This document shows, in pieces, positions 160 through 3,100 of a DNA stretch of 64,000 nt. Position numbers and translations under genes: made by a program. The stretch comes from Eledone cirrhosa (lineage: Eukaryota). The notes beneath the pieces were generated by a model, which did no database searches, was not told the origin of the DNA, and saw only the letters and a program-made list of their open reading frames with translations. Location of the stretch: positions 41,664,001-41,728,000 of the forward strand of contig OZ024756.1 of NCBI GenBank assembly GCA_964016885.1. Reading direction: 5' to 3'. Numbering within the stretch: position 1 is the stretch's first letter; each line of letters begins with the position of its first letter.

Positions 160-3100
160 CTGGCAGAAGAGGAAGAAAAAGAATGAATTAGGGTGAGATA
201 TTGTTGTTAGTTTAATAGTAGTTTCTATTAGCAACAGCACTGAAAATATCTGGCACTGCGTCGGTTACGACGACGAATGTTCCAGTTGATACGATCAAAG
301 GAGCAGTCTGCTCGTGAAATTAACATGCAAGTGGCTGAGCATTCGACAGACACGTGTACCTTTAACGTTGTTCTTAGGGAGAGTCAGCTTAACAGAGAAT
401 GTGACAAGGCTGGTCTTTTGAATTACAAGTACAACTCATTTTTGCTACACAGGTAGCTCTCTCGAATTTATAGATGTTAGGTCGCTCTCTTGAAATCATA
501 TAAGACACAGCTTTCTAGAAATGATATATAACACAGGTAGCTCTCTAATGAATATATAGGACGTAGGTCGCTCTCTAGAAATTATATAAGATACAGGTAG
601 TTCTATAGTAAATATACAAGACGTAGAAATTATATAAGACCTATGTAGCTCTCTAATAAATATATAAGACGAAGGTAGCTCTCTAGTAACTACTAAGACC
701 TATATAGTGCTCTATTAAATATATAAGACGGAAGTAGCTCTCTAGTAACTACTAAGACCTATATAGTGCTTTAGTAAATATATAAGACGGAGGTAGCTCT
801 CTAAAAACTACATAAGACCTATATAGAACTCTAGTAAATATATAAGACGGAGGTAGCTCTCTAGTTACTACTAAGACCTATATAGAGCTCTAGTAAATAT
901 ATAAGACGGAGGTAGCTCTCTAGAAATTATGTAAGACTAAGTTCCAATAACGATAACGAAAAACTTACCTGCTGTTGGCATGGATGGGAAATCTTGAAGA
1001 TCGTGGTTGAGGAAAACTCCGAACATTGTCAACAGGTGGGTCATATCTGGATCGACATTATCTTGATTGCTGTCACCATGGAATGTTGTACTGATCAAAC
1101 GAGCTCCAGGAAGGGTTCCTCCGAGGACACCAGTAGTACGAGGAACGTTGAGGGCTGGTTTAAAGAGAAATATTTTATATTAGTCACAGTAAGGCTCTGT
1201 CGCAACTCAGAGTGATACCACAACTCACAGGGGAGCCACAACTCACAGGGGTGTCACACCTCACAGGGGTGCTACAGATTACAGGGGTGTCACAGCTCAC
1301 AGGGGTGTCACAGCTCATAGAGGTGTCACAGCTCATAGGGGTGTCACAGCTCACCGGGGTGTCACAGCTCACATGGGTGTCACAACTCATAGGGAGTCAC
1401 AACTCACGGGGTTTTCACAACTCACAGGGGTGCTACAGATTACAGGGGTGCCATAGTTTAGAATGGGAATAAAGTGTGAGATGTGTTAGGGAAACGAAAT
1501 GGGATGTTATCTACTTGACTGGTACTTTATTTATCGACCCCGGGCAGATAAATGCTAATGTCAACCTCGGCGAGATTTGAACACAGAACATAAATGCAGC
1601 AAAGTAATTTGTCCGACGCTCTACCGATATTGCCAATCCACCACCCTGGGCCTGACTTTACATTGCTTGGCCCCTTTTGTTTGTTCGACACTCTACTGAT
1701 TCTAACAGTGTCAATTATTCATTTGTTTACTCACCATCTTCATAAACAGCAGGCAAATAACGGTCGAAAGGAGTATTTGATCGGCCAAGGTATGGGAACT
1801 GAATATTATTACAAGAGCCGTCAGCTGCACGATATGGAGAAGCTAGATCACAGGTTATGGCATCAAGGAAGGGACAGTTTTCAACAAGTTCCAGAGGTGG
1901 TTGGACAGCTGGGAGAAGGTTTTCTGCTGTTATAGCTCCATCAGCTAACCTGGAAGAAAGAAATGAAACATTTGAAGACTAGATTAATAGTTTGGTTTAG
2001 GGTGGAGGTGGGGCTGAGTCCTGAAACACTGTTAGGGTGGAGGTGGGGCTGAGTCCTGAAACACTGTTAGGGTGGAGGTGGGGCTGAGTCCTGAAACACT
2101 GTTAGGGTGGAGGTGGGGCTGAGTCCTGAAACAATCAACTCACAGCTGTTGAATGAGTCTCGCAGTGACGACAAATACAAGTCCAGTCTCAGCAATGGCC
2201 AACTGGTTCTCTGGTAGAAGAGCGGCGGCGGCGCCATTGACCAGAGTGTCGTTGGCGGCGGCAGCGGCGGCAGCGGCGGCGGCAGCGGCAGCAGCGGCGG
2301 CGGCGTCGGCAGCGACGGCGGCGGCAGCAACGGCGGCAGCGGCGGCGGCGACAGCGGCGGCCTCGTTGGCGGCGGCGTTACGTGCGGCGGCGACAGCGGC
2401 GGCCTCGTTAGCGGCTAGGACGGCGGCGGCGGCCTCGTTGGCGGCTAGGGCGGCGGCGGCGGCCAGGGCGGTGGCGTTGGCGGCGGCTTCGGCGTTGTCG
2501 GGGTTGGCAGCGGCAGCGGCGGCGGCTTGTTCGGCGGCAGCGGCGGCTTGTTCGGCGGCGGCGGCGGCAGCGACGGCAGCAGCAGCAGCAGCAGCGGCGG
2601 CGGCGTTTGCAGCTTCAGCAGCGGCAGTTTCAGTTGCAGCAGCATTGGCGGCTTCAGCAGCAGCAGCTTGAGCAGCAGCAGCAGCAGGGACAGGATTCAC
2701 GTTTCTAGCGCCACCAGCTACGTTTCCGGTTCCGGGGACAATTCCTTGGTCGGCCCCTACAACAGCTGAAAGTACGAAGAGAAAGTTTTTGTGAGAAATA
2801 CGATGGATGTTTATATGGACACTTAACTCTTTCGGAAGTCGTAGGGACGCCCTATTTATATACAGCGTGATATACGGCGTGTTTTGGGCACTTTAAACCT
2901 GGTAGAGTCCATCTCCTCTCCAGATCTGAACATAGCAGCACATTTCTTACTTGTATATATATATATATATATATATATATATATATATATATATATATAG
3001 ATATATATATATATATATATATATATATATATATATAGATAGATAGATATATATAAGGGAACAAAGAATCAGTGTTGCTGCATCATATACATATTTAATT

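Follow-up and report, generated by a model that had tools for sequence, protein, structure and literature searches.

The closest described systems are the heme peroxidases of two decapodiform cephalopods, Sepia and Euprymna. An ink-gland-specific peroxidase has been cloned from Sepia, and in this animal active peroxidases are found in premelanosomes derived from the endoplasmic reticulum, where they are thought to polymerise DHI/DHICA (available portions of PMC4052311). Ink-gland peroxidase is treated as a melanin marker (excerpt of PMC13739555). The Euprymna scolopes protein EsHPO comes from an expansion particular to squid, with 14 peroxidases, of which six are specific to the light organ (PMC6386654, partial text), and a hypohalous-acid role has been reported for it (PMC6386654 and PMC3187790, partial texts).

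We analysed 64,000 nucleotides of the genome of the octopod Eledone cirrhosa (hereafter the window; contig OZ024756.1 of assembly GCA_964016885.1), in which an initial annotation, made from the letters alone, had placed a secreted heme peroxidase, here called gene A, with about 145 alanine-rich residues in its pro-region, and a paralog, B, without such a block. The comparisons described below indicate that gene A is the apparent octopod counterpart of the Sepia and Euprymna enzymes, and they bear on the origin of the block and on what it might do in a melanin-forming granule.

Structure of gene A and of its alanine-rich exon

Gene A leaves the window at its left end, and 425 of its residues lie inside (Table 1). 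All six exons have GT donors, the five internal ones have AG acceptors, and from the ATG at 6558 they join into 425 codons without a stop. The encoded N-terminus is the same as in the orthologues from O. vulgaris and O. bimaculoides. Exon 2 is 82% identical to the O. vulgaris orthologue; its hydrophobic stretch, judged from its sequence to be a putative signal peptide, is followed by the first propeptide helix with a conserved Cys. Exons 4 and 5 score above the cut-off of Pfam PF03098 (33.4 and 30.0 bits against 25), the animal heme peroxidase family of the peroxidase-cyclooxygenase superfamily, in which the orthologues reach E-values of 1e-146 to 1e-164, and these matches, with the signal-peptide-like stretch, bear out the proposal of a secreted animal heme peroxidase. 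A Pfam scan of exons 2 and 3 returned no family. Exon 3 has a GC content of 0.706, an AG acceptor, a GT donor and an open frame, and its description as a coding exon in correct splice phase is confirmed. Contigs from three runs of one sample agree without any difference over 2698-2921 and 1620-2026. Directly after the donor of this exon, a tandem repeat of about 35 nt in four copies was seen by eye (~2135-1995, minus strand).

Table 1. Positions in the window of the gene A exons, their main elements and the corresponding exon of paralog B
Feature	Position	Strand	Basis or remark
Gene A exon 1, coding part: ATG and first three codons, the third split by an intron	6551..6558	-	GT donor
Gene A exon 2: signal-peptide-like stretch, Cys helix, Arg/Gly-rich basic segment	4254..4474	-	AG/GT ends
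Arg/Gly-rich basic segment, residues 54-65, the only dibasic site of the pro-region	4288..4323	-	sequence
Gene A exon 3, 622 nt, intron phases 1 and 2; codes for a linker, the Ala block and a conserved propeptide helix	2144..2765	-	
Ala-rich block, residues 104-247, 144 aa	2254..2685	-	predicted as two long helices
Helix-breaking turn NPD, then N-glycosylation sequon NAT	2470..2505	-	sequence motif
Second sequon, NDT, at block end	2245..2253	-	sequence motif
Conserved propeptide helix ending in IAETGL.F motif	2146..2244	-	present in five orthologues, degenerate in paralog B
Gene A exon 4: start of An_peroxidase domain (DGSCNN)	1735..1949	-	Pfam PF03098, E 2.5e-08
Gene A exon 5: distal helix, GVFLNHD at 1020-1000	969..1154	-	PF03098, E 2.6e-07
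Gene A exon 6, 25 nt	135..159	-	splice signals and open frame
Paralog B, homologous pro-region exon, 106 nt, no Ala block	20953..21058	-	

Alanine makes up 107 of the 144 residues of the block (74.3%, in agreement with the earlier estimate of about three-quarters), an exact count that rests on the assembly, as the contigs skipped the tract as a repeat; the longest uninterrupted Ala run is 17. Eleven residues are acidic and one is basic (11 D/E, 1 R), and Tyr, Trp, Phe, Cys, His, Lys and Met are absent from this block and from those of Sepia and Euprymna. The internal motifs of exon 3 were reproduced in the numbers first given (AANEAAA three times, EAANAAA and EQAAAAA twice each), as was the mixture of GCT and GCC codons: the first 181 residues of the exon use GCC 73 times, GCT 38 times and GCA 3 times for Ala, and the longest perfect runs are of 5 GCC and 6 GCT codons. 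A microsatellite artefact is ruled out by the mixed codons, the short perfect runs and the block of the same length in the O. vulgaris transcript.

That transcript, Cluster-58773.132244, encodes, in an ORF of 953 aa, a block counted at about 145 residues, which is of the octopod type and has the same central turn and both sequons (supplement of PMC10142993, available in part). The public octopod models of gene A (P0003, P0001, P0005, P0004) lack the block: in the O. vulgaris model CAI9737761.1 it is excised within the exon, with about 166 residues removed, in the O. bimaculoides model XP_052831162.1 it is replaced or skipped, and the Argonauta hians model GAB1610096.1 is truncated just after the block position. 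Its absence from the O. vulgaris model may reflect an annotation error or an exitron. The other matching O. vulgaris isoforms in the available part of the supplement measure 948, 864 and 433 aa, the 864-aa one being absent from the lists of the C-terminal peptides, and none of the three appears to be a block skip. The window corrects the octopus gene models and places the block across octopods and decapodiforms.

Relationship to the ink-gland and light-organ peroxidases

An exon 4 query picked out four of 269 candidates, all octopod proteins (O. bimaculoides, O. vulgaris and Argonauta), which are 86-90% identical to it. When the O. vulgaris protein served as the query, Euprymna Q24926 came next (64%), and the cluster of the match after it contained the Sepia 'melanogenic peroxidase' O18504. 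Q24926 is the same entry as AAA16245.1 (gi 159008), listed as Euprymna halide peroxidase; the accessions O18504 and Q24926 presumably derive from the cDNA cloning papers of 1993 (Tomarev) and 1997 (Gesualdo). Used as a homologue query, the Ala exon, which is of low complexity, gave no match among 8000 scored candidates, the orthologues having come by way of exon 4 and the O. vulgaris protein. Over the 175 residues that follow the block, gene A is 78-82% identical to the octopod A proteins, 69% to Euprymna and 64% to Sepia, and the same residues are 37-47% identical to five other paralogs and molluscan proteins, all these values being computed over local alignments of 100-175 residues.

In an 18-row tree, in which the third exon of paralog B was off by one base and the long rows of a 24-row tree were omitted, the six rows of the gene A clade (octopod A proteins, Euprymna and Sepia) were grouped with a support of 100/98; the earlier 24-row tree, which included the long-branch protein P0017 and for which three intended rows lacked the anchor motif, gave this clade 89/77. 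When paralog B was corrected and P0017 was added to the smaller tree, P0017 fell inside the group, at a support of 91/97. The clade members have the derived motif GVF[LF]NHD in common. P0017 itself, a Logan protein of 815 aa, is a long-branched relative placed near the ink clade. It has no Ala block and is without the proximal His, the distal Gln and the proximal Asn, and is likely a pseudo-peroxidase.

These sequence comparisons identify gene A as the octopod orthologue of the ink-gland/light-organ peroxidase of coleoids; the enzyme is known, and the orthologue is new. The comparison with cephalopod proteins that the initial annotation had proposed, including the Sepia ink-gland and Euprymna light-organ peroxidases, found the block at the same position in both, and with the block present in these deposited sequences the novelty attributed to it falls away: the gene and its block were already public, and no new system has been discovered here.

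Paralog B (11859-21058, minus strand) lies in tandem upstream of gene A and spans, by tblastn, the whole of the O. bimaculoides 'heme peroxidase 2' model XP_014773805; it retains the distal Gln and the two proximal Arg residues, and has neither ester acid. Its short pro-region exon has intron phases 1 and 2, as in gene A, and ends in IGESGSKF, so that both the length of 106 nt and the end motif shared with gene A (IAETGLVF) are as originally described. Further upstream of B are exons of an MFS/monocarboxylate-type transporter (~30500-40450, minus strand), which are joined to peroxidase B in the public models P0012 (O. vulgaris) and P0139 (O. bimaculoides); this fusion is likely an annotation merge that shows a conserved gene order. 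The window also holds two further open frames, at 61132-63999 and 8813-10306 (minus strand): one of 955 aa, which we take to read like a LINE endonuclease-reverse transcriptase, and one of 497 aa between genes B and A, presumably the end of another non-LTR element.

Conservation and origin of the block

The blocks of Sepia and Euprymna occupy the same position as that of the window, comprise 132 aa in Sepia, of which 60% are Ala, and 131 aa in Euprymna (58% Ala), and contain five GAD-type turns each, spaced 20-24 residues apart; the window block is without this five-fold GAD helix-turn repeat and has one turn only. Between the two decapodiforms, 107 of 132 block residues are identical in an ungapped alignment (81%; 36 of 47 at non-Ala positions), as are 495 of 618 residues of the catalytic part (80%), 18 of 34 in the upstream linker (53%) and 48 of 58 in the helix after the block. 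The Sepia-Euprymna block is, then, as conserved as the catalytic domain. The concern that the tract might be an unstable, individual-specific expansion is not borne out: the block is stable.

Among 277 stored proteins of at least 300 aa from the peroxidase searches, with a median of 12, more than 21 Ala per 100 residues occurs only in the Sepia (62) and Euprymna (58) orthologues, and among the 150 entries listed by a search of 50% clusters there was no additional protein with the block. Within the set of 277, the other paralogs and the outgroups are all without the block, which was therefore gained in the coleoid ink-peroxidase (A) lineage. The earlier alternative of a gain in A or a loss in B is decided in favour of the gain, since only orthologues among these proteins have the block; a loss in paralog B is ruled out by the same confinement to the Sepia and Euprymna orthologues.

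The octopod block is, in all probability, a variant of the squid and cuttlefish one. Against the decapodiform blocks it scores no better than shuffled copies of itself (z -0.2 to 1.1, p 0.15-0.76), and the z values of the shuffle test for Sepia versus Euprymna are 23-28. Homology between the octopod and decapodiform blocks rests on position, length, flanks and one post hoc motif, and parallel growth may have occurred. The motif, D..EA..NAT, is common to the window, Sepia, Euprymna and the O. vulgaris transcript; it was picked after being seen and arises in 28 of 100,000 shuffled versions of the block. The second sequon is NDT in the O. vulgaris transcript too; in Sepia and Euprymna, NAT stands near the block end.

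These data bear on the simplest account of the block, in which it would be a tolerated low-complexity linker, grown by codon slippage and devoid of a specific function, with the octopod and decapodiform versions perhaps independent of each other. The mixed GCC/GCT runs, the short internal duplications and the failure of the window block to exceed its shuffles against the decapodiforms are what such growth might leave behind, but the ungapped 81% between Sepia and Euprymna, against 53% in the adjoining linker, the narrow range of lengths (131-145 in four coleoid species) and the shared central turn and sequons make this account, in our judgement, very improbable.

The heme pocket

Pocket residues were read from an alignment to human MPO, and the ink clade (P0122 from Sepia, P0006 from Euprymna, P0003, P0001, P0004 and P0007) was compared with 74 other proteins. 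The clade retains the equivalents of MPO His261, Arg405 and His502: the distal Arg and the proximal His are present in 6 of 6 members and the distal His in the 5 that cover this site (nt 1005-1003 in the window), which points to a working enzyme. At the sites of Gln257, Asp260, Glu408, Arg499 and Arg590, the clade has Val, Asn, Val, Ile and Ala/Gln/Ser, respectively, the Val at the Glu408 site being found in 6 of 6 orthologues; the MPO residues are kept in 72, 54, 54, 73 and 73 of the 74 other proteins. The window, which covers the Gln, Asp and His sites, has Val at the halide-binding Gln site and Asn at the ester-forming Asp site, and the proximal residues are taken from the orthologues. Euprymna AAA16245, the 'halide peroxidase', has in addition a Lys at the proximal Asn site.

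In MPO, Gln257 helps to bind the halide and Arg499 is bound to a heme propionate (available part of PMC5437232), and fewer heme ester bonds accompany a lower redox potential, itself a property linked to halide oxidation (available part of PMC5787809). The signature of the halide-oxidising enzymes (MPO/EPO/LPO), a distal Gln with a heme-ester Asp/Glu, is absent from the clade, and the clade enzyme is probably non-halogenating. This reading sits badly with the hypohalous-acid role reported for the Euprymna protein. No activity assay of the purified gene product was found in the literature searched, and with a pocket that lacks the residues of halide oxidation, the halide-peroxidase label of the Euprymna protein, which is central to squid-Vibrio work, is worth testing.

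Predicted shape, processing and possible role of the block

AlphaFold predicts the window exon as two helices (27-86 and 91-205) broken at NPD (pLDDT 72.6, pTM 0.40, four sequences) and the corresponding region of Sepia as six (100-128, 133-151, 156-170, 176-192, 197-216 and 221-286) split at the turns, a helicity that is expected of Ala-rich sequence from composition alone. In the Sepia model, the first propeptide helix is at 22-51, pLDDT is 71-81 over residues 121-240 and 87-94 in the helix after the block, and the block lies between two confident propeptide segments, joined to them by low-confidence linkers. The ESM Atlas returned no feature match for the window exon or the Sepia block, the best structural TM being 0.49. 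An all-helical prediction tells against the silk-like scaffold that had been suggested; it concerns the monomer, and conversion to β-sheet on aggregation is compatible with it. Nor is the block likely to be a cross-linking substrate, because it is devoid of Tyr, Lys, His and Cys, and the proposed place in a cross-linked matrix of egg casing, beak or sucker is not supported in view of the wider absence of Y, W, F, C, H, K and M and of the abundance of the orthologue in ink.

Ink had been among the guesses of the initial annotation, and here it fared better: the orthologue accounts for 25 peptides and 268 of 2693 PSMs, about 10%, in O. vulgaris ink (PMC10142993, partial data), and its clade contains the Sepia ink-gland peroxidase. 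All 25 peptide sequences, in 30 rows, were inspected; 23 map to the catalytic or C-terminal part, and two, with 2 PSMs each, to the segment just upstream of the block, one of them spanning the junction into the Ala exon and the other being its shorter form (same partial data of PMC10142993). Because the junction peptide is found in O. vulgaris ink, the start of the Ala exon is translated and this segment reaches the ink; the upstream peptides, 4 of about 270 PSMs, are equally compatible with an attached and with a released propeptide, and two of the three ink samples were milked from dissected sacs, to which precursors may contribute (PMC10142993, available part). None of the 25 peptides in these data comes from the block, which is almost without Lys and Arg and hence has few tryptic sites, so that their absence weighs little against a block that is attached in ink.

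In the window, Sepia and Euprymna alike, the dibasic and RxxR sites are all upstream of the block, and the segment from block to core has a single Arg and no dibasic or RxxR site. The basic segment at residues 54-65 is a candidate processing site, and since the basic sites lie upstream of it, the block is likely retained on the enzyme. In MPO, the cleavage site is a cluster of basic residues in the C-terminal part of the propeptide (PMC5437232, available part).

With moderate confidence, we consider it likely that the block remains part of the secreted enzyme and serves as an acidic, glycosylated, helical and inert spacer or packing module in a granule-forming matrix. The signal peptide would be removed and trimming at basic sites would occur only upstream of the block, which would remain attached and would fold into helices, a series of short ones broken by GAD turns in squid and cuttlefish, two long ones with a single turn in octopods; its two sequons are likely glycosylated. 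Having no nucleophilic or oxidisable side chains, the block would be spared attack by the quinones and radicals that arise as melanin forms, and it could keep the enzyme in place, or packed, within the premelanosome matrix without itself becoming cross-linked, the altered heme pocket favouring one-electron indole oxidation over halide oxidation.

Alternatively, the block may be part of a removable propeptide that acts during biosynthesis (in folding, glycan-dependent ER quality control or premelanosome sorting) and is then cut off. The block falls within the equivalent of the MPO propeptide, a flexible and loosely attached segment that is removed (PMC5437232, available part), and it has two conserved sequons; the predominance of catalytic and C-terminal peptides in ink (23 of 25) would also be accounted for. 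The lack of a basic cluster between block and core, the occurrence in ink of two peptides from just upstream of the block, and a post-block helix that is both confidently predicted (pLDDT 87-94) and conserved like the core (48 of 58 between Sepia and Euprymna) argue in the other direction, and we regard removal as unlikely.

It is also conceivable that the block is a self-assembling scaffold that polymerises into the matrix for the melanin granules, the protein being structural as much as catalytic, in which case vertebrate PMEL would be its functional analogue. Such a role would suit the share of the protein in ink spectra (268 of 2693), the presence of peroxidases in premelanosomes before melanisation (available portions of PMC4052311), the regular repeat of the decapodiforms with its enzyme-like conservation, and the loss of heme-pocket residues throughout the clade. 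We nevertheless find it improbable, as the repeat pattern is gone in the octopod block, the block is net acidic (11 D/E, 1 R), the distal His, distal Arg and proximal His kept in five full-length clade members indicate a working enzyme, and no assembly experiment was found in the literature searched. Doubtful, too, is a reading of the coleoid ink peroxidase as an enzyme-scaffold chimera, in which the block, free of side chains that react with quinones, would assemble a matrix templating 200-nm granules and the enzyme, its pocket stripped of the distal Gln, the ester acids and the pair of proximal Arg, would be non-halogenating, and of low potential or partly dead; if this were true, the squid 'halide peroxidase' activity would come from a paralog.

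No paper on the function of the block was found in the open literature, searched by titles and the starts of abstracts, none of the entries listed mentioned the block or the pocket changes, and in the papers searched for the word 'alanine' it never referred to the block; the original cloning papers may describe both the block and the pocket changes. A block conserved like the enzyme between cuttlefish and bobtail squid, for which no paper on function was found, offers a direct handle on the organisation of ink granules.

Comparison with known systems

The Sepia officinalis melanogenic peroxidase (O18504 / CAA72331.1, 926 aa; P0122) belongs to the same clade as gene A, with which it has in common the GVF.NHD motif, the central NAT sequon and the order of parts: signal, Cys helix, Arg/Gly segment, Ala block, IA[EQ]TGL helix, peroxidase domain and weak TSP1-like tail. 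The difference lies within the block, which in Sepia is 60% Ala with five GAD-type turns, whereas that of the window is 74% Ala with one turn and Ala runs of up to 17. Euprymna scolopes EsHPO (Q24926 / AAA16245.1; P0006) has the same architecture and block position, and its block has the repeat of the Sepia type. Human MPO and lactoperoxidase (PDB 5mfa, 6bmt, 6lf7) adopt the same An_peroxidase fold, with which Foldseek matches the Sepia model at an E-value of 1e-38 and a TM by target of 0.86, but they are without the Ala block, and the ink clade is without the basic cluster at the propeptide end. Silks, molluscan matrix proteins and antifreeze proteins, whose poly-Ala properties served for comparison, resemble the block only in their high Ala content; the block differs from them in that it is predicted to be helical, is acidic and is part of an enzyme.
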